Shown: positions 1,967 through 54,980, numbered from the whole stretch's first letter. The stretch is 60,183 nucleotides of DNA, filler included, from Candidatus Babelota bacterium (GCA_017999075.1; 6 parts of 6 records of this genome joined end to end with filler, not necessarily neighbours in it), one strand, 5' to 3'. Notes: a model not told the origin generated them from the sequence alone. Numbers and translations are program-made.

Positions 1967-2512
1967 ATGAATTGGCTTAATGAAGTGCAAAATAGAATTA
2001 AAAGAAAAAATCTGGTTCTTTTTGCTAAAAATAGTGAATTTTTAGCAGATTTAACATTATTAATTCAAGAACAAAATCATAGAACAATGGTTATATGGGC
2101 ATTTGAATTTGCTGATGAAGCTGTTAAAATGTTGCTTGAGCGTTATCCGAACGAAAAACGACTCGAATCTGCTGTAATTACAGCAAAAGATTGGGCTGCT
2201 GGTAGAGTAAAAATGCCCGTGGCAAAGCGCGCAATTTTACAGGCTCACGCAGCGGCAAAGGAAATTGAATCTCTTGAAGATATAGCGTTGTGCCACGCGA
2301 TAGGGCAAGCTTGTGGTGTGGTTCACGCAAACGGACATGCTATTGGATTTCCAATTTATGATTTAACATCTATAATTAGGCATTATGGTGTGCCTGAATG
2401 CGAAAAATATGTTGAGAAGCGTAAAAAGCAATATATTGAACGGATATATTATTGGCGAGAACATTATGAAGACTATCCGTGTGAATGGGCTGAGTTTATG
2501 ATTGCAGATTGA
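1967..2512 (+). CDS. Imm-5-like (putative immunity) domain protein
   Basis: HRTMVIWAFEFA...YPNEKR...AKDWAAG...AHAAAKE...CHAIGQACGVVHANGHAIG pattern typical of Imm5-like helical proteins; GGAG RBS upstream. Confidence 0.65.
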   Translation: MNWLNEVQNRIKRKNLVLFAKNSEFLADLTLLIQEQNHRTMVIWAFEFADEAVKMLLERYPNEKRLESAVITAKDWAAGRVKMPVAKRAILQAHAAAKEIESLEDIALCHAIGQACGVVHANGHAIGFPIYDLTSIIRHYGVPECEKYVEKRKKQYIERIYYWREHYEDYPCEWAEFMIAD

Positions 2513-2925
2513 TTTTGCATTAATTATTAAAAAAATGAGCGCAGCTATATGTTTTTTTTGATTTTTTTCGCATACATTTTGTGTGTGAAATTTTCATCGG
2601 ATTTTTAGCTTGAAATATAATAAAATTATAGGATTCTTTGTTTTCGGTTAATTTGATTATGAAATATTCAGGCTAAAGAATCAGAAAAAAACTGACGGAA
2701 ATATAATGAAATATTTTGCTCATTTTAATAAAAGAAAAATTCGAAGAATGGTTGCATAAAATTAACATAAGAAAACATCAGTTCAGTCAAATCCCTCGAA
2801 TAAAAAAAGAAATAATTTTTTTAGAAAAACTCCTGAAACATGCGCATTCTCTTGTTAAAAAAGAAAAACATCAAATCAAAAACAAGCAAGTAAAACAAAA
2901 ACTTCAAAAAAAGTTAAAATAATAC

Positions 2926-2954
2926 TTGACAAATAAACCTCTTTGTGCTATATT
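2926..2954 (+). promoter_or_regulatory. Sigma70 promoter with extended -10 upstream of the RM/defence operon
   Basis: TTGACA 2926-2931, 17-bp spacer ending TGC, TATATT 2949-2954; GAGG RBS before ATG 2998. Confidence 0.7.
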
Positions 2955-2997
2955 TGTTGTGTAGGTAAAAAGAAAACTTCAATAAAAAGAGGTTATT

Positions 2998-3573
2998 ATG
3001 AAATTAAGTGAACTTTCAAGTATTATTTCTGGACATTTATTCAGAACCAAAATATCCCATGAGAATAAAGGAAATTATTCTGTTATTCTTATGAGAAATA
3101 TTAACGATGACAATACAGTAAATTATGACGAGTTGATTAAAACATCAGTTGAAAAAATCAAGCCGGAGCAATGTATAAAAAAAAATGATATTCTTTTCAG
3201 GGCAAAGGGAAATAATAATTATGCCACATACATTGACAGGGACCTTGAAAATACTACCACCAATACCCATTTTTTTATTATTCGTGTTAAATTTGAAAAG
3301 ATTCTGCCTGAATATCTGGCTTGGTATATAAATCAAAAACCTGCGCAAATGTATTTTTTACAGCACTCTCCTGGAACAGTTATTCCAATAATTACAACTA
3401 AGAATTTGGGAAATCTCAATGTTGTTATTCCTGACATTACAACTCAAAAACAAATCATTCAAATTCATAAATTAAGTATAAGAGAAGAAAGTCTGTCAAA
3501 ACAGATTGTATATAAAAAAAAGCGGTTAATTGAAGCTTTACTAATAGAAAAAATTAAAGGGGGAGTAAAATGA
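2998..3573 (+). CDS. Half-size (single-TRD) type I RM specificity-subunit-like protein
   Basis: MKLSELSSIISG, KNDILF, ILPEYLAWYIN, LNVVIPDITTQKQI HsdS-like motifs; ATGA overlap with hsdM. Confidence 0.75.
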   Translation: MKLSELSSIISGHLFRTKISHENKGNYSVILMRNINDDNTVNYDELIKTSVEKIKPEQCIKKNDILFRAKGNNNYATYIDRDLENTTTNTHFFIIRVKFEKILPEYLAWYINQKPAQMYFLQHSPGTVIPIITTKNLGNLNVVIPDITTQKQIIQIHKLSIREESLSKQIVYKKKRLIEALLIEKIKGGVK

Positions 3574-5066
3574 GTGATTCACCAAAAGTAACTCAAAACG
3601 AAATTAATAATCTGGCTTGGAAGGCCTGTGATACTTTCAGAGGAGTTATTAATGCGGATCAGTATAAAGACTATATTCTTGTCTTTTTGTTTATTAAATA
3701 TATCAGCGATGTCTGGAAAGAGCATTATCAGCAGTATAGCGAAATGTATAAAGGAGATGAAGTCCGTATTCAGCGCCGTCTCGAGCGTGAGCGTTTTTTT
3801 CTGCCTAAAGAATCAACTTTTGATTATATTTATATGAACCGCACCAAAGATAATATTGGAGAAATTATAAATACTGCTTTGGAACAGATTGAAGAAAAGA
3901 ACAAAGAAAAACTTGAAGGCGTTTTTCGTAGTATAGATTTTAATTCGGAAAATCTAGGTAAAACAAAAGATAGAAATAAACGCTTGAAAAATTTAATTGA
4001 GGATTTTGCGGATTCAAAACTTGATTTTCGATCCTCTCATACAGGCAATCAGGATATTATCGGAAATGTTTATGAATATTTGATTTCAAGATTTGCCAGC
4101 GATTCGGGTAAAAAAGGCGGAGAATTTTACACGCCGCCGGAAGTAGCGCAGCTATTAGCAAAAGTTTTGGGACCAAAATCAGGAATGAAAATTTGTGATC
4201 CAACCTGCGGGTCAGGGTCGCTTCTTATAAAAATAGCCGATGAAATTCAGGACGGAAATTATTCTCTTTATGGACAGGAAAGTAACGGGAGCACCTGGGC
4301 GCTTTGTAAAATGAATATGTTTTTGCATAGCAAAGATACCGCCCGAATCGAATGGGGCGATACGCTTAATACGCCGCTGCTTATTGAAAATGATGAGTTG
4401 ATGAAGTTTGATATTGTCGTTGCAAATCCTCCGTTTTCGCTTGATAAATGGGGGGCGGAAAATGCCGCTGCCGATAAATATAACAGGTTTCATCGTGGCG
4501 TTCCGCCGAAAAATAAAGGAGATTACGCGTTCATCTGTCATATGATTGAAACTGCTCTTACTAAAAAAGGGAAAGTCGGCGTTGTGGTTCCGCACGGCGT
4601 TCTGTTCCGCGGCGGTCAGGAAGGCGTTATCAGAAAATCCTTGATTACTGAAAATTTTCTTGAAACCGTTATCGGTCTTCCGGAAAATATTTTTTATGGA
4701 ACAGGAATACCAACTGCAATACTCATTTTTAACAAAGCAAAAAAGAATAATGATATTTTGTTTATTGATGCAAGTAATGAATACGCAAAAGAAAAAACGC
4801 AAAATAAACTCAGGCAGGAGGATATTAAGAAAATTGTTGAAACTTGTAGAAAACGCCAGACAATTGATAAATATTCGTATCTTGCTTCAATTGATGAAAT
4901 CACTGAGAATGAATTCAATTTGAATATTCCTCGATATGTTGACACTTTTGAAGAAGAAGAACAAATTGATATTCCTGCTGCGCAAAAAGAAATTAGCGGT
5001 CTTGAAAAAGAACTTGCTGAAGTCCGTCAGCAAATGAACGGCTATTTAAAAGAATTAGGATTTTAG
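3570..5066 (+). CDS. hsdM: Type I restriction-modification methyltransferase subunit M
   Basis: GEFYTP, DPTCGSGSLL (motif I), NPPF (motif IV), NLNIPRYVD. Confidence 0.97.
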   Translation: MSDSPKVTQNEINNLAWKACDTFRGVINADQYKDYILVFLFIKYISDVWKEHYQQYSEMYKGDEVRIQRRLERERFFLPKESTFDYIYMNRTKDNIGEIINTALEQIEEKNKEKLEGVFRSIDFNSENLGKTKDRNKRLKNLIEDFADSKLDFRSSHTGNQDIIGNVYEYLISRFASDSGKKGGEFYTPPEVAQLLAKVLGPKSGMKICDPTCGSGSLLIKIADEIQDGNYSLYGQESNGSTWALCKMNMFLHSKDTARIEWGDTLNTPLLIENDELMKFDIVVANPPFSLDKWGAENAAADKYNRFHRGVPPKNKGDYAFICHMIETALTKKGKVGVVVPHGVLFRGGQEGVIRKSLITENFLETVIGLPENIFYGTGIPTAILIFNKAKKNNDILFIDASNEYAKEKTQNKLRQEDIKKIVETCRKRQTIDKYSYLASIDEITENEFNLNIPRYVDTFEEEEQIDIPAAQKEISGLEKELAEVRQQMNGYLKELGF

Positions 5067-5077
5067 AGTGGGAAAAA

Positions 5078-5485
5078 TTAACCACGAACTTTCACGAACG
5101 GACACGAACGAATAAAGTTAGGAGTTTTGAGTTAAATTTATGTCAACAGTGATGACACAAATTGCATGCAATTTTGAAAATAAAAATGTTAGTGCATGTT
5201 AGTGTCGGTTAGTGGCAAAGAAAAAAATAACCACGAACAACACGAACGAATAAGTTGAGAGTTGAGAGTTAAAAGTGAAAAGTTAAAAGTTGAGAAAACT
5301 TAAAATGTTATTGAATATTTGAGGTTATTATGAAATTGAAAAAAGTTAGTGATTGTTAGTGTATGTTAGTGGTAAAAAAATTAACTACGAACTTTCACGA
5401 ACGGACACGAACGAATAAAGTTGAGAGTTAAGAATTAAAAGTTAAGAGTTAGAAAAAGTGTCACCGCTGGAGACACAAATTTTAA
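5078..5485. repeat. Three tandem ~150-bp composite repeat modules between hsdM and the DUF1016 gene
   Basis: (T)TAAC(C/T)ACGAAC blocks start at 5078, 5228 and 5381, each followed by GAATAA(A)G and 7-bp GTTRARA-like tracts. Inverted GTTAGTG triads at 5188/5198/5208 and 5345/5355/5365. Confidence 0.9.
5330..5359 (+). pseudogene. hsdS start stub (MKLKKVSDC*) with the hsdS leader and RBS
   Basis: Preceded by AAAATGTTATTGAATATTTGAGGTTATT, nearly identical to the leader of intact hsdS at 6901-6928; cut off by a GTTAGTG triad. Confidence 0.6.
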
Positions 5486-5500
5486 GGTTGGTGTTTAATT

Positions 5501-6679
5501 ATGAAGTTTGACGAATTAATTAAAATTATTGAAGATACAAGCAGCCGGTTACAAAAACGGGCATTGACATCTGTAAATCAATTACTTGTTATTCGTAATT
5601 GGTTGATTGGATGTTATATTGTCGAATATGAACAAAAAGGAGCAGACAGGTCAAAATACGGTGAAAAATTACTTGAGAATCTTTCTTCAGAATTGAAAAA
5701 GAAAAAAATTAAAGGTATGTCGTTTACGAATCTTAAAATTTTTCGTCAATTTTACTTGATATACCCGCAAATTATTAAGATATTATCCGAAAAAAAAATT
5801 AGTCAGCCACTGGCTGACAAATTTATGAATGCAATTTATCAGGCATTGCCTGATGAATTTGGGATCTCAATTAGTCAGCCGCCGGCTGACAAATCAGGAA
5901 ATTCAATTCTTCAGCCATTGGCTGAAGAATTAGAAAAAAAACGAACTCACGTAAAACAATATATCGAACCAGCCCTTTTGTTTACTCATCTGTCATTTAG
6001 GCATTTTACCGAACTGATTAAAGTTGATGACGCATTGAAGCGAGCATTTTATGAAAATGAAGCAATAAAAGGTAACTGGAGTTCCAGGCAACTAAAGCGG
6101 CAAATTGAATCATTACTTTTTGAGCGTATTGGGCTATCAAAAAACAAAACGCAATTATTAAAATCTATAGAAAAAACAAAAGAGATTGTATCTGTTGAAG
6201 ATACGATAAAAGACCCTTATGTATTGGAATTTACAGGGTTCAAAGAATTACCGGCGTATTCTGAAAGTGATCTTGAATCTGCACTGCTTGATAAAATTCA
6301 GGATTTTCTTATTGAACTCGGTCATGGGTTCTGCTTTGAAGCTCGTCAAAAAAGAATAACCATTGATAATGAACACGACAGAATTGATCTTGTGTTTTAT
6401 CACAGAATTTTAAAATGTCATGTCTTGATAGATCTGAAAGTAAGAGCTTTTCAGCATGCAGACGCAGGACAAATGAATTTTTATTTGAATTATTATAAAA
6501 AAAATATGATGGCGAAAAATGATAATCCGCCTGTCGGTATAATTATGTGCACAAACAAAGATAATGCAAAAGTTGAATATACTACCACAGGAATAGATAA
6601 TAAAATGTTTGTATCTAAATATCTCGTCGAACTGCCGAAAAAAGAAGAATTGGAAAAACTTATTGAATTAAAGGATTAA
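5501..6679 (+). CDS. DUF1016/YhcG-family PD-(D/E)XK nuclease domain protein
   Basis: NWLIGCYIVEYEQKGADRSKYG, WSSRQLKRQI, IKDPYVLEF, ELGHGFCFEARQKRI, DLVFYHRILKCHVLIDLK, GQMNFYLNY. Confidence 0.93.
   Translation: MKFDELIKIIEDTSSRLQKRALTSVNQLLVIRNWLIGCYIVEYEQKGADRSKYGEKLLENLSSELKKKKIKGMSFTNLKIFRQFYLIYPQIIKILSEKKISQPLADKFMNAIYQALPDEFGISISQPPADKSGNSILQPLAEELEKKRTHVKQYIEPALLFTHLSFRHFTELIKVDDALKRAFYENEAIKGNWSSRQLKRQIESLLFERIGLSKNKTQLLKSIEKTKEIVSVEDTIKDPYVLEFTGFKELPAYSESDLESALLDKIQDFLIELGHGFCFEARQKRITIDNEHDRIDLVFYHRILKCHVLIDLKVRAFQHADAGQMNFYLNYYKKNMMAKNDNPPVGIIMCTNKDNAKVEYTTTGIDNKMFVSKYLVELPKKEELEKLIELKD
5797..5931. repeat. Four intragenic 27-bp palindromes at an exact 36-bp period in the DUF1016 gene
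   Basis: AATT-N-[8-bp arm]-N-[8-bp arm]-N-AATY units starting 5797, 5833, 5869 and 5905. Confidence 0.9.
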
Positions 6680-6967
6680 CCACGAACAACACGACGGACA
6701 CGAACGAATAAAGTTGAGAGTTAAGAATTAAGAGTTAAAAGTTGAGAAAAAATAAAATGTTATTGAATATTTGAGGTTATTATGAAATTTAAAAAATTAC
6801 CGGATGGCTGGGAAGAAAAATTTAACCACGAACAACACGAACAGACACGAACGAATAAAGTTAGGAGTTGAGAGTTAAGAGTTAAAGGTTGAGAAAAATT
6901 AAAATGTTATTGATTACTTGAGGTTATTATGAAAATTAAAAAAATACCCGTTGGCTGGGAAGAAAAA
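6676..6967. repeat. Two tandem ~146-bp modules (CACGAAC triad + 7-bp tract + hsdS leader and first 13 codons)
   Basis: Units start at 6676 and 6822. The first overlaps the DUF1016 TAA stop; the second runs into intact hsdS. Confidence 0.9.
6782..6871 (+). pseudogene. Truncated alternative hsdS 5' end (MKFKKLPDGWEEK, then repeat-encoded tail)
   Basis: First 13 codons parallel MKIKKIPVGWEEK of hsdS at 6929 but are diverged; broken exactly at TTAACCACGAAC. Confidence 0.75.
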
Positions 6968-8155
6968 AAAATAGATGAACTGAATATCAGCATTATTGAT
7001 GGAGATAGAGGAAAAAATTATCCGAATGAAAAAGATTTTTATGATAATGAATTTTGTTTATTTCTAACTGCTAAAAATGTAACGATTAATGGTTTTAAAT
7101 TTTATGAATGTCAATATATTACAAAAGAAAAAGATTCAAAATTAAATAATGGAAAATTACAAAAAAACGATATTGTTTTAACTACTCGAGGAACAATCGG
7201 AAACTTTGCATATTACAATGAAAGTATTACATATGAAAATATTAGAATCAATTCTGGAATGGTTATAATAAGAAATAAAGAAAAATTATTTACTAATTAT
7301 TTATACTTTTTTTTAAGATCATTTATTATAAAATCGCAAATTAAAAAAGTTGTTTTTGGAAGTGCGCAAGCACAATTAACAGTTCAAATTATTAAAACTT
7401 TAAAAATTCTTTATCCGAAAAATTTGATAGAACAGCAAAAAATCGCTGAAATATTATCAACATGGGACGAAGGAATTGAAAAAATTGAAAAATTGATTGA
7501 GTCAAAACAGAAATTGAAAAAAGGAATAATGCAAAAAATTTTTTCAGTTAAAAGTGAAAAGTTAAGAGTTAAGAGTTTTAATATTAAAATGCAGAAACTA
7601 AAAAATTACATTAAAGAAATTTCAATAAAAAATCGCGGTTCGAAAATATCAACTGTTTTAAGCGTTACAAATTCCAATGGGTTTATAAACCAGGAAGACC
7701 AGTTTGAAAGAAAAGTTGCCAGTAAAGATTTGTCAAATTATAAAATAGTAAAAAAAGGACAGTTTGCTTATAATCCTTCGCGAATAAATGTTGGCTCAAT
7801 AGATTTGCTCGAATCTTTTGAAGAAGGAATTGTCAGTCCGATATATGTAGCATTTGAAACTAAAGAAGAAGAATTATCAAAATATTATTTTAAATATTTT
7901 TTGCAAACAAATTTATTTAAACAACAAATGAAAAAATATTTTGCTGGTAGTGTGCGGGAAAGTTTAACTTTTTCAGGACTATCATTCATTAAAATACCAT
8001 TAGCAGATATAAATAAACAAAAATATTATGTAAATATTTTATTAACAATCGATAAAGAAATAGATTTGTTAAATAAACAGTTGTCATTATTCAACAATCA
8101 GAAAAAAGGACTGATGCAGGTATTATTAACAGGAAATATTAGAGTGAAAATTTAA
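6929..8155 (+). CDS. hsdS: Type I RM specificity subunit S (two TRDs)
   Basis: IPVGWEEK start, DGDRGKNYP TRD, EQQKIAEILSTWDEGIE...KKGIMQ central conserved region, KKGLMQVLLTGNIRVK end. Confidence 0.95.
   Translation: MKIKKIPVGWEEKKIDELNISIIDGDRGKNYPNEKDFYDNEFCLFLTAKNVTINGFKFYECQYITKEKDSKLNNGKLQKNDIVLTTRGTIGNFAYYNESITYENIRINSGMVIIRNKEKLFTNYLYFFLRSFIIKSQIKKVVFGSAQAQLTVQIIKTLKILYPKNLIEQQKIAEILSTWDEGIEKIEKLIESKQKLKKGIMQKIFSVKSEKLRVKSFNIKMQKLKNYIKEISIKNRGSKISTVLSVTNSNGFINQEDQFERKVASKDLSNYKIVKKGQFAYNPSRINVGSIDLLESFEEGIVSPIYVAFETKEEELSKYYFKYFLQTNLFKQQMKKYFAGSVRESLTFSGLSFIKIPLADINKQKYYVNILLTIDKEIDLLNKQLSLFNNQKKGLMQVLLTGNIRVKI
7547..7581 (+). repeat. 7-bp tandem tract inside the hsdS inter-TRD linker
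   Basis: GTTAAAA GTGAAAA GTTAAGA GTTAAGA GTTTTAA; 7546-7565 is identical to intergenic 5267-5286. Confidence 0.8.
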
Positions 8156-8156
8156 T

Positions 8157-8225
8157 GTTCGTGCCTGTTAGTGCCTGTTCGTGGCAAAAAATAATTAACC
8201 ACGAACAACACGAACGAACACGAAC
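8157..8225. repeat. Complete symmetric site: three GTTMGTG, A/T-rich core, three CACGAAC
   Basis: GTTCGTG/GTTAGTG/GTTCGTG at 8157/8167/8177; CACGAAC at 8200/8209/8219. Confidence 0.9.
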
Positions 8226-8236
8226 AAAAAAACGAG

Positions 8237-8620
8237 GTGGTTATAATGGATTTGATTTTTAAAGACGAATATAACGATATTATGAAAGCGTGTTTAGAAG
8301 TAAAAAATGAATTAGGAATTGGGTTTTTAGAAAAAGTTTATGAAAACGCTTTGAAAATAGAATTGGAGTCAATGGGTTATACAGTCAAACAGCAGCATCC
8401 AATCAGCGTATTATACAAAAATAACATTGTCGGCGAATATTTTGCTGATTTGGTTATTAACGATAAAATAATTATTGAATTAAAATGTTCGAAAAAAATA
8501 TCCGATATAGACAAAGCGCAGCTTATACATTATTTAAAATCAACAGGAATAAAATTAGGAGTTTTGATAAATTTTAATAAAGAAACCAATCACTTTGAAA
8601 TCGAACGATATGTATATTAA
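8237..8620 (+). CDS. GxxExxY protein (PD-(D/E)XK nuclease-like fold); start may be ATG 8246
   Basis: LGIGFLEKVYENAL (GxxExxY), YFADLVINDKIIIELK, AQLIHYLKSTGIKLGVLINF. Confidence 0.93.
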   Translation: MVIMDLIFKDEYNDIMKACLEVKNELGIGFLEKVYENALKIELESMGYTVKQQHPISVLYKNNIVGEYFADLVINDKIIIELKCSKKISDIDKAQLIHYLKSTGIKLGVLINFNKETNHFEIERYVY

Positions 8621-8663
8621 CGTGGCAAAAATTAGCCACGAACTTTCACGAACGAACACGAAC
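8621..8663. repeat. Repeat site with truncated left arm between the GxxExxY and Avs genes
   Basis: CGTGGC-AAAAATTA-GCCACG palindrome directly after the stop; CACGAAC at 8637/8647/8657. Confidence 0.85.
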
Positions 8664-8679
8664 ATTAAGGAAGTAAAAA

Positions 8680-9994
8680 ATGAGTTTTAAAAATTTTAAT
8701 TGGAATAATATTAGACCAATTAATGGAGATGTTAAAATAGGTTTTGAAGAACTATGTTGCCAGCTAGCATACTATGAAAAAATGCCTATCGGCTCAATAT
8801 ATACTCGAAAAGGAACTCCTGACGGAGGAGTAGAATGTTTTTGGAAATTATCGGATAACTCAGAAATTTGTTATCAAGCTAAATTTTTTATAAATTCCCC
8901 TACAAATTCAGAATGGTGTCAAATAAAAAAATCTTTATATGAAGCAGTAAATAATCACCAAAATTTAACTCAATATATAGTTTGTTTACCACTCAATTTT
9001 TCTGATGGAAGTAAAACAAAAACGAAAAATCAAAAAACGGCTTTAGATAAATGGAATGAATATATAAAAAAATGGGAAGCGGATATAAAAATTAAATTTA
9101 AAAAGAAAATCAGAATTTCATATTGGGGTGAAACTGAAATAATTGATAGACTTTCAAAACCTGAACATCGAGGTAGATATTATTTTTGGTTTAACAAGGA
9201 CTTGTTTACTAATGAATGGTTTAATAATTTTTTTAATGAAACAAAAGCAAATGTTGGAGCTCGATATTCACCGGAAATAAATATAACTCTGCCAATTAAT
9301 AAAGTTTTTGACACTCTATTAAGAAATGATACTTTATTTTTTGAAATAAGAAAATTGAGAGCTGAATTATTAAAACAAAAACAAGAACTTAATTTTAAAG
9401 ATAAATTAATTAAAAGTAAAGAAGAATTATTATGTTTACATAAGAAAACAGATGCTCTAATAGATTATTTAAATGAATATATTTCTGGTAAATTTGTCTA
9501 TATAGATATAACTAAAATAGTCTCTTTAATTAGCGATATTATTACTCAGTCAAATAAATTAAATGAAATAATTAATCAGACTAAAAATGAATATAAGGAA
9601 AAAAATGATTATGAATATAAGCTTCATTCGATAAATAAATTTCGACGAAAACTATATGAAATTGAAAATTTTTTTAAACAAAATCATATTAATCTTATTA
9701 ATCAACCTTTTTTATTAATATGCGGCGATGCAGGTCAAGGGAAAACGCACTTATTTTGTGAGATAATCAGTCGACAGATTTTATCTGGAAAGCCGGCATT
9801 GTTATTTTTGGGTATGAATTTTAAAAATAATGATCCGTGGAAGCAAATGTTGGATAGAATAGGATTAAACTGTTCTCGTGAGGAATTTTTAGGTGCATTA
9901 AACGCTTTAGATCAATTATCTAACCAAAGATGTCTAATTTTAATTGATGCTCTTAATGAAAGTGAAGAAAGACATTTTTGGAAAACTTATATTG
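8680..9994 (+). CDS. STAND NTPase with N-terminal Mrr-like/PD-(D/E)XK nuclease domain, AVAST (Avs2-like) anti-phage protein; truncated by contig end
   Basis: FEELCCQL...PDGGVEC...YQAKFF nuclease motifs; Walker A GDAGQGKTH; Walker B LILIDALNE. Confidence 0.75.
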
Positions 9995-10094
9995 NNNNNN
10001 NNNNNNNNNNNNNNNNNNNNNNNNNNNNNNNNNNNNNNTTAATTAATTAANNNNNNNNNNNNNNNNNNNNNNNNNNNNNNNNNNNNNNNNNNNN
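9995..10094. other. Artificial contig linker (N-TTAATTAATTAA-N); also at 20089-20188, 30180-30279, 40215-40314, 50223-50322
   Basis: Identical 100-nt spacers with a 12-mer giving stops in all frames. Confidence 0.98.
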
Positions 10095-11655
10095 TTTCTT
10101 GATGATTAGCGTCATACGATCGTTTTAAAAGATAATCAGGAAGTTCAAGCCCTGACATTTTGAACAAGTCTTCAAGCGGCGGCAGAGATTTTGCCAAACC
10201 AGACATAAATTGAGCTGTGGAAGTTTTGCCGTCTCCTGAATTCGAAGTTGAATCCCAAACAGTAACTTTATCAATTTTGATATTTTTAATGGCATCAACC
10301 TGAGTTTTTACAAGTTCAGGAAGTTTATCTGCTATCATCATAAGAACTGCATTTTTAGGATCGTTTCCGCCAGCGGCATTAACAAGTTTTTCAAATCCTT
10401 CAGCCTGTTTGCTTAATATTTCAAAAATACCTTTTGCTTCAGCTTCCATTTTAAAGAAAATAGCATCAGCTTCGCCTTTTGCTTTTCTTCTGATTTGTTC
10501 AGCTTCAGCTTCGGCGTCAATTTCAATTTTCTTTTTATTTATTTCGGCAGGAACTACTATATCTGCATTTTTTGAAGCTCGTTCTTTTTCTGCTCTGATA
10601 GTTTCAGCTTTACGTTCGGCTTCATACGCTTCAGAAAGGGCTAACGCTGACTGAACTTTTTCAGCAGCAGTGGCGCGTTTATTAGCTTCGGCTTCACGCT
10701 CGCGGCGTTCCGCATCAGAATTTGCTATAGTTATTTTTGCAGTATTTTCACCTTCAACTGCAGTAGCGTTTGCTTCTGAGGTTTTAATTCTTGTATCCAT
10801 CATTGCATTTGCTTTTGCTATATTTTCGTCGCGTTTTGCCTGAGCCACTCTTATTTCTTTATCGCGTTCTGCTTCAGCTATACCAACGTTTTCTGCACTT
10901 TTGGCATTTGCCATGTTTATTTGTCTGTCGCGTTCAGCTTCAGCCATTTTAATATCTTTATCACGATCGGCATTTGCCTTACCGATTTCACCATCGCGAT
11001 TTTGTTCTGCCACACTTTTTTTTGCATCATTAATGGCTTTTGCAGCAGCTTCTTTTCCCAGAGCTTCAATATAACCTGATTCATCGCGGATATCAGTGAC
11101 ATTTACGTTTATGAGTTTTAATCCTATTTTTTTTAATTCGGTTTCAACATTTTTTGAAACATTGGTAAGAAATTTATCGCGGTCAGAATTAATTTCTTCA
11201 ATATCCATTGTTGCTATAACAAGACGGAGCTGACCTATTATGATATCTTTTGCAAGTTCCTGAACTTCGTTAAGTTCAAGGCCAAGTAACCGTTCTGCAG
11301 CATTAGTCATAACCCCTGGTTCTGTAGAAACGCCTACTGTAAAACGTGAAGGGACATCAACCCTGATATTTTGTTTACTCAGAGCTTTTGTTAAATTTAC
11401 TTCTATTGACATTGGAGTCAAATCAATGTATTCATATGATTGAATCAAAGGCCATACAAAAGCAGCGCCGCCATGAATACATTTTGCAGAACGGTTTAAT
11501 CCGTTATCTTCGCTGCCGATTTTACCGTAAACTACTAGAATTCTGTCTGAAGGGCAGCGTTTAAACCTTTTTATCATCAATACAATTGAACCGAAAATAA
11601 TTGCAGCAATAATGCCGACAAGTATTAGAGAAGTTGAAAACGCATCTAAAAACAT
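10095..11655 (-). CDS. Flotillin/SPFH-domain protein (3' end cut by contig edge)
   Basis: N-terminal TM, KRCPSDRILVVYG, GGAAFVWPLIQ, AAERLLGL, long EA-rich coiled coil, IKIDKVTVWD. Confidence 0.92.
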
Positions 11656-11698
11656 GATAAATCCTCCTGAAAAATTGGGTTAGTTTTTTGTTTTAATT

Positions 11699-12283
11699 TT
11701 ATTTTTTTTTGACTACAACAATATTATTTCCGGCTATTTGATAAACAGAAACTAAAGTGCCGGTTTTAATAAGTTCTTTTTCATCTGTTACAGCTTCGAT
11801 TTCGCGGAATGATCCCTGAACGTTAATTTGAATTTTTCCGGTTCCATTTCTTGAAGCAGGTATTTCCAAATAAACCTGACCGTCCAAACCAACACAATTT
11901 TTTATTTTGAAATTTCCGCTTTCTGCAAGTTTGTTCATCATTACAAAAATTGAAATTACTATACCCAATACAATAATGGATAAAATTGAAGATATGGCTA
12001 AACCTGCCCAAATAGGCAATCCGAGTTTAACGCAGGTTATGCCTGACCATCCTAGAACTGTAAAAAATATTACAAAATTACGGAATGTGAAGATAGGATA
12101 AGAATGATCTCCGGCATCAGAAAAGTCATGTCCTGAATCAGTATTTAAATCAGAATCTCTATCTCCGCCGCCGATACCGAAAAAATTTAAAAATAGCTGA
12201 ACTGCAAATAAAACTGTAAACGGAATTGTAAGTCCCCATAATATTTTTTCATATGAAGATGCATTGCCGAGTAATTCGTTCAT
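11699..12283 (-). CDS. NfeD-like partner of flotillin
   Basis: TM segments plus C-terminal OB-like VYLEIPASRNGTGKIQINVQG...EAVT; directly upstream of flotillin. Confidence 0.85.
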   Translation of the reverse strand: MNELLGNASSYEKILWGLTIPFTVLFAVQLFLNFFGIGGGDRDSDLNTDSGHDFSDAGDHSYPIFTFRNFVIFFTVLGWSGITCVKLGLPIWAGLAISSILSIIVLGIVISIFVMMNKLAESGNFKIKNCVGLDGQVYLEIPASRNGTGKIQINVQGSFREIEAVTDEKELIKTGTLVSVYQIAGNNIVVVKKK

Positions 12284-12438
12284 TGTTATATTTTATCCTT
12301 TCTTTAAAGATTTAAATCAAAATATATAAAATTATCACGAAAACGCAATGTTATAAAATGAATAAATGTTTTTCAACTTTTGATGAATCTCCTTGATGAA
12401 ATTAATTATATTGCTTGATGAAAAAAAATCAATTTAAA

Positions 12439-14427
12439 TTAACGGCTGTAAATTTTATAGGATAAACCGTTCAATGTTGCTGCAACAGAATTCGAAACAA
12501 CAACGAGTGTGTCTGTTGAATCGAAAATATTAGTTAACAATGTTCCGTCTGTATAATTAAGTTTTAAATTAAGTGGAACATTATTTTTGGTAGAAGAAGA
12601 TGTATTGAAAATTATTATTGCTTCGGAATCATTTGAATATCTTGAAAAAGCATAAATTCCGCATGTATCTTCAGATTGTAGTTCGGCAAATAAACCGGTT
12701 TTAATAAAACTGTATGATGAATCTGAAAATTTGTTATTTACAATTTTTATAAAGTTATAAATGTTGTGTCCGGTATCAAAATTATCTCCTGAAGAAGGAC
12801 CGAATTCAAAAAGACCATTCCACATATCTTCTCGGACATAACCATCCCCGTAAGAAACGCTCAGTTTGTATCCGTCAAATCCTTGTTCTGTTCCATAGTA
12901 AATGCAAGGAATACCGGGATATGAAGCCATAAACAAATATGCAAGTTTTAATTGAGTGTCATATCCTTCAATATTTTGAATATAATTATATTCATCTGTT
13001 TTTTTTGAGTTAAACCTGTCAAGATCGTGGTTGTCGAAAAAAGTTACGAGTTTATCCTGTGCAGAAGTATCGTAGTAATTAATATTAGCACGGCGCTGTG
13101 TTATTAAATTTGTTGCTCCAAAATTTTTAAATACGTCAATAATAGTTGTTTTCATTGGAAAATAAGTTAATGATTCAAACAGATATTTATCAGGGTTATT
13201 TTTTGTTCCTGTATATTTACCTACTTTTTCGTCATCAGTATCACACCAAACTTCCCCGAAAATAAAAAAATTTGTTTTTCCTATTTTAGAACATTCGGAT
13301 TTTATATAAGGAAGAAAATGTTCCCAAAAAGAAAAATCAACATGTTTTGTGGTATCAATTCTAAAACCATCGCAATCAGTTTTAAGAATCCACCACATAT
13401 AAATATAGGATAATATTTTTTGAACTTCAGGGTGTTCGGTTTTAATATCATCAAGACCGAAAAAATCTCCTTTAACTCCTTCTATAGGATCATCCCATCC
13501 GGAACCGATATTGCCGTAATTATGAAAATAATCAAGGTTTGCAAGATATGAAGGTAAATGTTTTAGTGATTCATCGGAATATTTTAAGGTATAACCTTGA
13601 GTATAATTCCAATCATACTTGTTTTCATAATTAGATATTAAATCTGCGGAATGATTTACGATAGCGTCAAAAATTACGGATATACCTCGTTTGTGAGCTT
13701 CGCTTACAAGTTCTTTGTATTTTTCAATATTTCCGAAATGAGGATCAATCTCTTTGAAATCCAATATATGATAACCGTGATACGACGGTTTGTTTTTTAA
13801 TATTGGAGTAATCCATAATGCCGTGATTCCGAGATTCTGCAAATAATCAAGTTTATCTATAATTCCCTGAATATCTCCTCCATGAATTTTTCCTTTATCT
13901 GCAGGATCGAACATATCGCCTGCATTTAATTGATTTATTGCAGTGTCTCCGTCATTAAACCTGTCTATCATTACAAGATACATTACCTTGTTTCTCCATT
14001 CTGAAGGAGAAACAGAATAAGATGCCGGATTAAATACGTCAATTTTAAAAGAACCTGCGGCAATAGCTGATTTAACTGAATTTCTTACTGTGAATTCCAC
14101 AACAAATTCCCCAGTATCGGTAACGACTGGTGAAATAGTGAATATTTTTTGAGATGAATCATAAGAGACAAATGAAGGAATTGAGTCTATTGAAACATTA
14201 ATGTAATCAGTTCCATTATAATAAATATTAAGGTGGTAATATGAAACATTATTTACAAAAGTATATGTGTCATACAAATTATTGATTTGAATCACAGGAA
14301 AAGCAGGAGTTTTTTTATAATCGCCGCATCCTGATAATATTATTAAAATTAAACATATGAATATAAGATTAATTTTAAGAACAATCCATTTTTCAGATAA
14401 GATCATATTAAAATGACAGATTGACAT
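12439..14427 (-). CDS. GH13 alpha-amylase-family protein, probable lipoprotein with N-terminal Ig-like region (true start probably slightly downstream)
   Basis: DRFNDGD, GGDIQGIIDKLDYLQNLGITALWITP, YHGY, DGFRIDTTKH, FGEV, NHD; LSGC lipobox. Confidence 0.9.
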   Translation of the reverse strand: MSICHFNMILSEKWIVLKINLIFICLILIILSGCGDYKKTPAFPVIQINNLYDTYTFVNNVSYYHLNIYYNGTDYINVSIDSIPSFVSYDSSQKIFTISPVVTDTGEFVVEFTVRNSVKSAIAAGSFKIDVFNPASYSVSPSEWRNKVMYLVMIDRFNDGDTAINQLNAGDMFDPADKGKIHGGDIQGIIDKLDYLQNLGITALWITPILKNKPSYHGYHILDFKEIDPHFGNIEKYKELVSEAHKRGISVIFDAIVNHSADLISNYENKYDWNYTQGYTLKYSDESLKHLPSYLANLDYFHNYGNIGSGWDDPIEGVKGDFFGLDDIKTEHPEVQKILSYIYMWWILKTDCDGFRIDTTKHVDFSFWEHFLPYIKSECSKIGKTNFFIFGEVWCDTDDEKVGKYTGTKNNPDKYLFESLTYFPMKTTIIDVFKNFGATNLITQRRANINYYDTSAQDKLVTFFDNHDLDRFNSKKTDEYNYIQNIEGYDTQLKLAYLFMASYPGIPCIYYGTEQGFDGYKLSVSYGDGYVREDMWNGLFEFGPSSGDNFDTGHNIYNFIKIVNNKFSDSSYSFIKTGLFAELQSEDTCGIYAFSRYSNDSEAIIIFNTSSSTKNNVPLNLKLNYTDGTLLTNIFDSTDTLVVVSNSVAATLNGLSYKIYSR

Positions 14428-53434: not shown

Positions 53435-54980
53435 ATATTTTTTTCCCGAAAAATATTTTATTGACCAATTTTTCCAACGTTTCAATCTCAAACGGTTTTT
53501 TCAAATATGCAGAATATTTCAAATTTTTTATTACTTTGACAGTTGATTCGTTTTGTCCTGATATAAAAACTACAGGCAAATCAGGTCTGATTTTTTTTAT
53601 CATATCAAACAACCTGTCACCTTTTAATTTAGGCATGAATATATCAAGAAAAACCAAATCATATTTATTTAACTTTATCAGTTTTTCAAGGTTTTTTGAA
53701 TTTTCAACACAATCACAATTATTGTATCCAAGTTTCAAAAACATTTTTTTCATTAATGAAAGTATTTCCAATTCGTCATCTATAACAAGTATTTTAAAAT
53801 CATAACAATGATTTTTCCCCAGAACTTCAGGTTCTTTTTTTTCAACTTTTTTAATATTTTCATTATACACAGGTATTTCTATTGTAAAACTCGAACCTAT
53901 TCCAGGTTTGCTTTCAATTTTTATATTTCCATTATGATTCTTTATTATAGAATAAGATATGGTTAGTCCCAGTCCTGAACCTTTTAATCCCAGCTCATCT
54001 TTAGTATGAGCTCCTTTAGTTGTGAAAAACGGATTAAAAATATTTTTTTTTATTTCATCATCCATCCCTATTCCATCATCTGAAATTTTAATCACAATAA
54101 TATCATTTTCATCTTTAATCGATATTGAAATTTTTCCTTTATTCTTTGGTAAAATAGCATGGCGGGCATTTATTATTATATTCAAAAAAACCTGTTGTAT
54201 CTGATCAAAATCAACATACGCTTTATTCTTTGACTTATAAACTTTACTTATTTTTATATTTTCAAGTTCAAAATTATTTTTCTGGATTTCAATAACTTTA
54301 TCCATTATATCTGAAACATTAAACAATTCTTTTTTTAAAGGTTTAACTGTTGCAAACCTAAGCATATCATTTACAATTACAGAAGCGCGTTTTGCCTGTT
54401 CCTCAATAATTTTTAACACTCCTATCATTTCCTGCTTAGTAGATTCATATTTCAAAGTTACCTGAACATTCCCGTAAATTATTGCAAGTATATTATTAAA
54501 CTCATGGGCAACTCCTGCAGCAAGCTGGCCAACTGCAGCTATTTTTTCCGAATGAATAAGCTGCTGTTCAAGTTTTTTTAATTCAGATATATTTCTGATA
54601 AATAATTGTATTATTCCGTTATTTTCAGATGAAACAAGTTTTGAACTTACGCTTATCGGAAGCAGCATTTGTTTTTTGGTTACCAGATATGAATGATATA
54701 ACATTGAAATATCTCTTTTCAGTTTATCATTCAAAATATGAAACGGCTCATCAAAACATATTATCTGTTTAAGTTTCATCCTGCCAATTTCTTCTTTAGA
54801 ATAACCTGTCATTGAACATAGATTTTTATTAAATTCAATGATTTTCCCATTAAAATCATGGATAATTATAGCTTCATTAACATTATCTACTATAGTTTTA
54901 TATTTTTTTTCGCTTTCTTTCAATCTTTCAGTCAAATAAATTAATTTTTTATAATGTTTAATTGTTTTTTTTTCCATCAC
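53427..54980 (-). CDS. PAS-domain hybrid sensor histidine kinase with receiver domain
   Basis: AHEFNNIL H-box, DDGIGM, PFFTTK, GSGLGL; receiver ILVIDDE, LDIFMP, KPF. Confidence 0.93.
   Translation of the reverse strand: MMEKKTIKHYKKLIYLTERLKESEKKYKTIVDNVNEAIIIHDFNGKIIEFNKNLCSMTGYSKEEIGRMKLKQIICFDEPFHILNDKLKRDISMLYHSYLVTKKQMLLPISVSSKLVSSENNGIIQLFIRNISELKKLEQQLIHSEKIAAVGQLAAGVAHEFNNILAIIYGNVQVTLKYESTKQEMIGVLKIIEEQAKRASVIVNDMLRFATVKPLKKELFNVSDIMDKVIEIQKNNFELENIKISKVYKSKNKAYVDFDQIQQVFLNIIINARHAILPKNKGKISISIKDENDIIVIKISDDGIGMDDEIKKNIFNPFFTTKGAHTKDELGLKGSGLGLTISYSIIKNHNGNIKIESKPGIGSSFTIEIPVYNENIKKVEKKEPEVLGKNHCYDFKILVIDDELEILSLMKKMFLKLGYNNCDCVENSKNLEKLIKLNKYDLVFLDIFMPKLKGDRLFDMIKKIRPDLPVVFISGQNESTVKVIKNLKYSAYLKKPFEIETLEKLVNKIFFGKKIYG

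Follow-up and report, generated by a model that had tools for sequence, protein, structure and literature searches.

What places the same short repeat at one gene junction after another within a bacterial restriction operon? We address this question for a stretch of DNA of 60,183 nt (the window hereafter, at its full length and filler included) from Candidatus Babelota bacterium (GCA_017999075.1), in which six parts of six records of the genome are joined end to end. Around positions 5067–8679 a type I restriction-modification (R-M) operon runs from hsdM, through genes for DUF1016, HsdS and GxxExxY proteins, to an open reading frame (ORF) resembling part of Avs2, and arrays of the heptamer CACGAAC recur along its junctions. 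A preliminary description, made from the sequence alone, took these arrays for the sites of an integron-like system in which genes are inserted, deleted or swapped. Our analysis leads elsewhere: the motif copies are probably the arms of short elements with inverted repeats, a family associated with GxxExxY genes, which would resemble repetitive extragenic palindromic (REP) sequences with their REP-associated tyrosine transposases (RAYTs), or MITEs (miniature inverted-repeat transposable elements). The cluster would therefore be the trace of an operon that has been colonised, and not a cassette exchanger.

In the architecture we propose, an arm would consist of two or three 7-mers at 9–10 nt spacing, in most cases preceded by T-rich sequence and CC. 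The canonical gene-bearing unit would comprise a left arm, a short leader, the GxxExxY ORF and a right arm, whilst gene-less units (left arm, 0–200 nt, right arm) would be its derivatives, spread to intergenic sites, typically right after a stop codon or between the genes of an operon. The window would hold one gene-bearing copy, at 8195–8625 between hsdS and the Avs2-like ORF, and as derivatives two gene-less units and, at other junctions, left arms 3, 4 and 5 (Table 1); the hsdS leader would moreover have been copied three times by local duplication.

The repeats of the window are not a product of chance. The window contains the pattern CACGAAC-N2–4-CACGAAC ten times, in each case on the + strand and between 5083 and 8663, and 100 shuffles did not produce it once; likewise, 18 of the 21 occurrences of the heptamer fall in 5083–8657, all 18 on the + strand, where 1.26 are expected. 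A scan for the array grammar (at least three 7-mers, period 9–10) returned eight arrays in 5082–8636 and a single AT-rich chance match at 53839 (shuffles gave 0–3), and there are therefore no further clusters in the window, as the preliminary description had maintained. Its seven direct copies were all recovered at the starts of left arms 1–7 (repeat families D2/D3/D8), and the shuffle and expectation tests agree with it that they form a real, non-random class of site at gene junctions. In detail, left arms 2, 3 and 4 depart from the motif as first described. Three inverted arms (GTTMGTG ×3; right arms 1–3) had been overlooked, and they alter the picture at the stop codons. The TAA of the DUF1016 gene does lie inside the motif; an arm does follow the hsdS stop within 1 nt, but it is an inverted one, with the direct motif 40 nt further on; and next to the GxxExxY stop comes a degenerate remnant of an inverted arm (CGTGG), the direct motif beginning 12 nt later. 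The hairpin formed by right arm 3 and left arm 6 has a folding energy of −20.9 kcal/mol (z −6.3), with none of 200 shuffles as good. For four of the seven left arms an inverted partner is missing nearby, and the two lone left arms tested showed no folding.

The gene-less modules of ~150 bp noted previously are present, but they are not anonymous. Two of them, at 5078–5215 and 5228–5372, are complete gene-less units in which a left and a right arm enclose an interior. The interior of the first opens with a stretch homologous to GxxExxY coding sequence (z 8.2; 0 of 100 shuffles), and this derivative thus keeps a relic of the gene. The interior of the second is a copy of the hsdS leader, and further copies follow left arm 4 and left arm 5; the three copies are 74–90 % identical, and the truncated ones end precisely where the following arm starts, which fits the arms as points of breakage or recombination. 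In addition, a stretch beginning GAATAAAGTT stands after five of the seven left arms (repeat family D6).

Such modules could in principle be mis-joined repeats created during assembly. Logan contigs do break at or near the repeats, and the pieces listed leave 5008–5089 and 6724–6759 uncovered; yet single contigs with 0–1 differences span 5090–5330, 5308–5422, 5409–6723, 6760–8004 and 7991–9990, crossing six of ten arms, and pieces with no differences were found in three more runs (the best-matching run may be the source sample, and hence not independent). As the same architecture moreover occurs in many unrelated assemblies, an artefact can scarcely be credited. The runs with matching contigs are labelled wastewater and anaerobic digester (coded run records). 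In X1 and X3 one record connects 8049 with 8684 through 26 letters of different sequence; since its matched sides measure only ~20 nt, with loose ends at positions 8028 and 8701, it was given no weight.

Table 1. Heptamer arms, derivative segments and genes of the operon region (positions in the window)
Feature	Position	Strand	Details
Left arm 1	5078..5109	+	TTAACC + CACGAAC ×3, spacers 3, 3
Right arm 1	5188..5215	+	GTTAGTG ×3 + G; repeat family D7; closes a 138-bp gene-less element with left arm 1
Left arm 2	5228..5247	+	Two heptamers
Right arm 2	5345..5372	+	GTTAGTG ×3 + G
Left arm 3	5381..5412	+	First unit CTACGAAC
Left arm 4	6676..6705	+	Middle unit degenerate (CACGACG)
Left arm 5	6822..6852	+	Heptamer array
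Right arm 3	8157..8184	+	GTTCGTG, GTTAGTG, GTTCGTG + G
Left arm 6	8195..8225	+	Directly upstream of GxxExxY
Degenerate right-arm remnant	8612..8625	+	Overlaps the GxxExxY stop (…TAACGTGG); small hairpin with 8636–8641
Left arm 7	8632..8663	+	Starts with TTAGCC; 16 nt upstream of the next ORF
GxxExxY coding fragment	5110..5139	+	Homologous to coding nt 310–338; identical at 27 of 28 aligned positions, with one 2-nt gap
hsdS-leader copy 1 + first 5 codons	5242..5368	+	D1, 74 % identity; score 112, z 23.7; in second gene-less element
hsdS-leader copy 2 + first 13 codons	6694..6820	+	D1 reference copy; stops exactly at left arm 5
hsdS-leader copy 3 + full gene	6841..6967	+	Third copy, all codons of hsdS
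Half-size hsdS, 191 aa	2998..3573	+	PF01420, E 4.8e-11; overlaps the hsdM start
hsdM	3570..5066	+	PF02384, E 8.3e-109; PF12161
DUF1016/YhcG PD-(D/E)XK protein	5501..6679	+	PF06250, E 7.5e-57; PF17761; stop inside left arm 4
hsdS, 408 aa	6929..8155	+	PF01420, E 2e-22
GxxExxY PD-(D/E)XK nuclease gene	8237..8620	+	PF13366, E 5.4e-39; TIGR04256; likely start ATG 8246
Avs2-like N-terminal ORF	8680..9994	+	NF041813, E 9.4e-57; ends in a masked stretch

Outside the window, GxxExxY genes (PF13366/TIGR04256) were present in 39 of the 151 Spirochaetota and 58 of the 121 Verrucomicrobiota genomes searched, and 30 loci from each phylum were picked by PF13366 score alone, ignoring repeats. A general link between CACGAAC and GxxExxY was rejected, the CACGAAC form being found at one of the 30 Spirochaetota loci, and the test was therefore moved from the heptamer to the grammar of the array; the flanks of these genes hold inverted and direct repeats of the same grammar built from other heptamers. 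Strict arrays lay within 300 nt of the gene at 18 of 30 Spirochaetota and 10 of 30 Verrucomicrobiota loci, and at none of 22 loci of the DUF1016 control, with densities near versus far from the gene of 2.08 vs 0.47 per kb in Spirochaetota and 1.28 vs 0.04 per kb in Verrucomicrobiota. A flanking inverted-repeat score of ≥ 30 was reached at 12 of 28 and 24 of 28 loci, respectively, and at none of 21 DUF1016 loci; inverted repeats of 7-mers at 9–10 nt spacing thus flank 36 of 56 GxxExxY loci in two phyla (the scoring left out L164 and L335, which had been reached via the motif, L170, in which the gene is broken, and loci with short flanks). At eight of the ten array-positive Verrucomicrobiota loci the left arm precedes the domain match by 33–59 nt and the right arm follows it at 10–53 nt, whilst the remaining loci, inspected by eye, mostly have two-unit or degenerate arms. 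The heptamer varies by lineage (CACAGAG, CGCAGAG, CACGAAG, CACGAAA, CGCAGAT, ACAGGAT) with a common grammar, and left and right arms are complementary within a locus whilst differing between loci. The association of heptamer arms with GxxExxY genes seems widespread. The preliminary description had suggested that a nuclease-fold protein of the operon, or a recombinase acting in trans, could be the catalyst, and had proposed a check for enrichment beside GxxExxY and DUF1016 genes. GxxExxY fits the role of a partner of the motif through arm association, seen as enrichment at the level of the grammar, and through the co-variation described below, whereas DUF1016, with arrays at none of its 22 loci elsewhere, does not. 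hsdM adjoins GxxExxY in 3 of 58 other loci.

At two Spirochaetota loci (L149, 150–1500; L151, 60–1490), at least ten gene-less tandem units with periods of ~89 and 130–147 nt abut GxxExxY. A CRISPR-like array was ruled out for both, the interiors of the units being conserved and not variable.

The sequence of the arm and that of the protein vary together. Heptamer labels, assigned by eye and placed on a quick maximum-likelihood tree of 63 GxxExxY domains, required 27 changes; shuffling the labels gave a mean of 40.5, and no value so low in 200 shuffles. Three phyla meet in one starred clade with eight members, of which four are of the CACGAAA type and three of the CACGAAC type, the eighth being L156 (CACGAAT/A); their sources are Spirochaetota, Verrucomicrobiota, a Phenylobacterium and a metagenome contig. 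A label-free test of the 40 loci whose flanking repeats scored ≥ 30, restricted to pairs from different groups, likewise related protein identity to arm similarity (rho 0.253), a value reached by 1 of 1000 within-group permutations. Furthermore, the abundant type of array within a genome corresponds to the arms of its resident GxxExxY gene. G093, where the arms of GxxExxY are CGCAGAT, contains 183 matches to the CGCAGAT pattern, vs 0, 0, 1 and 1 in four other genomes; the CGCAGAG/CGCTGAG pattern occurs nine times in G024, always at its GxxExxY gene; and the CACAGAG pattern occurs six times in G141, always on the contig of its GxxExxY gene.

The CACGAAC form itself was followed by a one-genome-per-species scan for three heptamers, which gave at least 120 loci, some of them unrelated coding or tandem repeats, and by a metagenome scan for the TTAACC form, which gave at least 112 contigs (array counts below refer to these 112). 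Amongst the matches listed, the combination of T-rich sequence, CC and heptamers recurs in many Caulobacteraceae, termite-gut Treponema, Verrucomicrobiota and Acidobacteriota. Five whole genomes contained 3, 14, 7, 42 and 10 CACGAAC arrays (reversed control 0, 0, 1, 0 and 0). In the listed metagenome contigs, 174 of 195 arrays were intergenic, and an inverted partner was found within 250 nt downstream of 100 of the 195 and upstream of three (median loop 64 nt). Of the 148 ORFs that adjoin an array (within 120 nt), 100 were scanned; their matches fell into 127 Pfam families, mostly of housekeeping enzymes, and two ORFs were the most that any family occurred in. Homologues of the window proteins beside CACGAAC were rare: DUF1016 in L022 and L242, and GxxExxY in L033, L071, L104 and L242, in all four directly beside or between the arms. 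No close relative of the operon was present among the 232 motif-bearing loci listed. In L104 (750–1151) and L242 (563–1021) the spacers are 2 nt, the period is 9, and the longest GxxExxY ORF runs through the arm as His-Glu-Pro repeats, a putative extension of the protein at its N terminus. Coding (His-Glu-Pro)n repeats as an origin of the motif were dropped by reasoning only, a period of 9 being seen just in some high-GC loci.

These results bear directly on the cassette model, according to which a gene together with its downstream site is inserted, excised or swapped by a recombinase or nuclease behind one promoter. The model would account for a site at every junction in one orientation, for the strong promoter-like site at 2926–2954, for hsdS standing between left arm 5 (6822) and right arm 3 (8157), and for L242, where a CACGAAC arm and then a GxxExxY gene come after a fragment of DUF1016. 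However, in every other genome examined the motif is dispersed intergenically beside varied housekeeping genes; dispersal regardless of cargo is the very pattern that the preliminary description had itself named as speaking against such a system. DUF1016 genes elsewhere lack the arrays, and each site is an array of direct heptamers rather than a fold of the attC kind. Moreover, no integrase (IntI) or other recombinase was found among 20 ORFs of the window that were profile-scanned (10 around the array and the 10 largest others), and no alternative joint reached the listing thresholds in the contigs of four runs, contigs being weak evidence of absence. Gene swapping at these sites is accordingly highly improbable. 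A phase-variable hsdS shufflon was rejected as well, there being no inverted repeat of ≥ 24 nt in 2900–8200 and no recombinase among the ORFs scanned. DnaA boxes and Rho utilization (rut) sites were dropped by reasoning only, the former because the spacers in the window do not preserve the CCACA core.

A further possibility is that the arrays are generic REP-like repeats without a functional tie to GxxExxY, both gathering in permissive intergenic spots, and that the window cluster grew by tandem duplication or slippage. In keeping with this, G005 has arrays without GxxExxY, most CACGAAC arrays are distant from any such gene, tandem duplication with A-rich junctions is seen in the modules of the window, and intergenic heptamer repeats with inverted pairs and without a known function are described for Xanthomonas and Nostoc in the portion of PMC4692102 consulted. 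Unlinked repeats would hardly be expected, however, to stand at fixed distances round the GxxExxY ORF, as in the array-positive Verrucomicrobiota loci mentioned above, to be missing from the DUF1016 control, or to vary in arm type with the clade of the protein between phyla and with the resident gene inside a genome. We therefore judge this explanation improbable.

One insertion polymorphism was observed. In G004 two operon genes are separated by a unit of ~125 nt, made up of a full left arm, a loop and a right arm, which is situated after the stop of the first gene and before the start of the second, and at the orthologous junction in five relatives the two genes abut and the unit is missing; a possible TTCAT target duplication is not securely readable. 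At seven Verrucomicrobiota GxxExxY loci (L313, L314, L320, L325, L326, L329 and L338), an ORF with the same N terminus follows immediately downstream. The four of these ORFs that were scanned all proved to be GatB, and the upstream ORF scanned (L325) was the amidase GatA. Arm-bracketed GxxExxY thus sits in an essential operon, with heptamer types at the gatA/gatB junction differing between loci, and the shared junction speaks for long residence rather than frequent movement.

Residence within operons is also the starting point of the main rival to our interpretation, which places the role of the arms in the RNA. The arms would pair in the transcript and the stem would be processed (e.g. by RNase III), so that an ORF is tolerated in an operon whilst GxxExxY mobilises nothing. 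The intervening sequences (IVSs) of 23S rRNA are a precedent, their stem being processed, for example, by RNase III. This would suit elements found at junctions inside operons (in the window, between gatA and gatB in Verrucomicrobiota, and in G004) and arms that are complementary within a locus though differing between loci. It would also suit the genes of PF05635 ('23S rRNA IVS protein'/four-helix bundle), which at 22 of 29 Verrucomicrobiota loci (within L343–L372) have inverted tandem-repeat arms with a period of 7–8. Against it, the spacers between heptamers are often non-complementary, and the conserved unit is therefore the 7-mer and not a helix; most window hairpins are weak; gene-less copies number up to 42 or 183 per genome, which calls for copying at the DNA level; the type of arm co-varies with the protein; and no Rfam family was found at the region. 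We hold an RNA-level role to be unlikely as the whole explanation, and it may coexist with the element family that we favour.

In that element family, GxxExxY would be the mobilising nuclease. The window protein scores 133.6 bits against cut-offs of 22 and 35 (PF13366 and TIGR04256), and its G27, G29, E32, Y35, D71, E81 and K83 are invariant in an alignment of 24 sequences, so that the predicted catalytic set of E, D and ExK (E32, D71, E81, K83) appears intact. Its structural model has a pLDDT (predicted local distance difference test) of 93.4, and the solved structures that Foldseek places nearest to this model are those of Cas4 SSO0001, exonucleases of the lambda type and Hjc resolvases from archaea (template modelling score ~0.45–0.56), whilst a PDB sequence search with GxxExxY gave no matches. 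In the portion of a PD-(D/E)XK survey that we consulted (PMC3424549), PF13366 is entered as 'Unknown', and an open-access paper, likewise seen in part, names GxxExxY merely as a neighbour of a reverse transcriptase. We infer that GxxExxY binds, cleaves and mobilises the arms: several protomers would bind the in-phase heptamers, the nuclease would cut at or near the boundary of the arm, and repair or copying would then spread or rearrange the elements.

A number of observations weigh against this interpretation. The CACGAAC form occurs at only the one Spirochaetota GxxExxY locus mentioned above. In G005, 10 CACGAAC arrays coexist with no PF13366 match, and G004 has 42 arrays and two GxxExxY genes, neither of which has CACGAAC arms right beside it (the arms of one are CACAAAG, and its nearby CACGAAC arrays lie 400–600 bp off); either arrays therefore outlast their cognate gene or these metagenome-assembled genomes are incomplete. 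On the tree, labelled by eye as noted, neither the window protein nor L033 is in the tight CACGAA clade of eight, both falling within a starred clade of 22 that holds all CACGAA-type loci. There is one empty-site case only, with a target-site duplication that is not readable with confidence, and several of the Verrucomicrobiota loci are orthologous (gatA|gatB) and not independent. Within the window, the right arms are mostly GTTAGTG, a mismatch to the CACGAAC left arms; folding is clear over shuffles in one of three right-to-left-arm hairpins and in neither of the two whole gene-less elements, the other four structures folded with an inverted partner being weak (z −1.4 to −2.4). Finally, the organism is known from these 60 kb alone, and dispersal is seen in other genomes.

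The remainder of the operon region is summarized in Table 1. The type I R-M set is incomplete, with hsdM and two hsdS ORFs but no hsdR among the ORFs scanned in the window; no window ORF reaches 800 aa, and none is therefore long enough for hsdR. A promoter scan of the window gave 43 sites vs 36.2 ± 5.4 in shuffles, so that only the site at 2926–2954, with 11 of 12 matches, stands out. Just 5′ of the R-M locus, at 1967–2512, lies a gene for an Imm5-like putative immunity protein. At the other end, residues 191–438 of the Avs2-like ORF align with profile positions 3–262 of 1317 (NCBIfam), and its 192.8 bits fall below the cut-off of 1000 for full-length Avs2 (NF041813). The ORF is at most ~470 aa long and is followed by a convergent SPFH/Band7 gene, with N masks at 9995–10038 and 10051–10094; it may be a truncated remnant, its true end hidden by the masks at 9995–10094. 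An Rfam scan of 2500–12500 with E up to 1 found no family at the arrays and no rRNA, the sole match being a sub-threshold CRISPR-DR56 at 11115–11148, and no tRNA or tmRNA was found across the window.

Two further repeats were seen in the operon. The N-terminal region of the DUF1016 gene (5797–5931) contains three 36-nt tandem units, each with a short palindrome AGTCAGCC-N3-GGCTGAC. Moreover, tandem GTTRAGA heptads follow five left arms (5254–5295, 5420–5447, 6713–6747 and 6867–6894), and a tract at 7546–7574, in frame in mid-hsdS between the two halves, matches the leader tract at 27 of 29 positions (D5). The GTTRAGA tracts have no inverted partner within the window, and they possibly derive from an orphan arm of a second type of element or from a relic of the hsdS conserved region. 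Some PF05635 arms (L369, L372: GTTGAAA/GTATAAA) look like these tracts.

A broader generalization is conceivable, although we put it forward only tentatively: GxxExxY proteins could be the dedicated nucleases of widespread minimal selfish elements, whose lineage-specific heptamer ends are read by several protomers, which lodge at gene junctions in operons such as R-M loci and gatA|gatB and leave REPIN-like (paired-REP) gene-less copies, with PF05635 genes as a sister class bearing tandem-heptamer arms. If this were true, the arms would constitute a simple and evolvable code of protein–DNA recognition, and a specific DNA partner would assign a function to the common GxxExxY family. It would also explain why small accessory genes lodge between R-M genes and even essential operon genes, and it would account for intergenic repeats built on heptamers, a class to which the part of PMC4692102 consulted assigns no definite role. 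For annotation, junction arrays of this kind should be taken as element arms and not as regulatory or cassette sites. Our literature search covered open-access texts, with subscription papers, database comments and supplements outside its scope, and the portions seen held no account of repeats flanking GxxExxY.

Several known systems invite comparison. With integron cassette arrays the window shares genes running one way, each with a related site, behind one promoter-like site, but it differs in having no IntI among the ORFs scanned, no attC-type fold, and sites that elsewhere are not tied to cargo. The 23S rRNA IVS with its PF05635 protein is likewise a small ORF bracketed by inverted repeats inside a transcription unit; here, however, no rRNA is involved, and PF05635 arms have their period of 7–8 without spacers. 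As in type I R-M loci with accessory genes, DUF1016 and GxxExxY are lodged between hsd genes. DUF1016 has been noted to co-occur with restriction methyltransferase and S domains (PMC3424549), whereas flanking repeats or a means of insertion are not described in the part of that source consulted. The heptameric repeats of Xanthomonas and Nostoc (PMC4692102) are, in the part seen, also intergenic, often in convergent inverted pairs and open as to function, but they are pure tandem 7-mers, G-rich, and reported there without an associated gene. Insertion sequences and MITEs resemble the present elements in their terminal inverted arms round one small ORF, in their gene-less deletion derivatives (here one with a coding relic) and in presence/absence polymorphism (G004 vs five relatives); they differ in that GxxExxY belongs to no known transposase family (PF13366, TIGR04256, Foldseek) and that many copies here appear long fixed at one operon junction. 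REP/REPIN sequences with RAYTs, finally, are similar as short dispersed intergenic repeats, commonly inverted doublets (seen here in genomes other than that of the window), and as a single-copy gene flanked by the same repeats, whose sequence is specific to the lineage of the resident gene. Unlike the REP, which is one palindrome, the arm here is a direct array of 7-mers at 9–10 nt spacing, and where the RAYT gene encodes an HUH/Y1 (IS200/IS605-type) transposase, the gene between these arms encodes a 127-aa PD-(D/E)XK nuclease.

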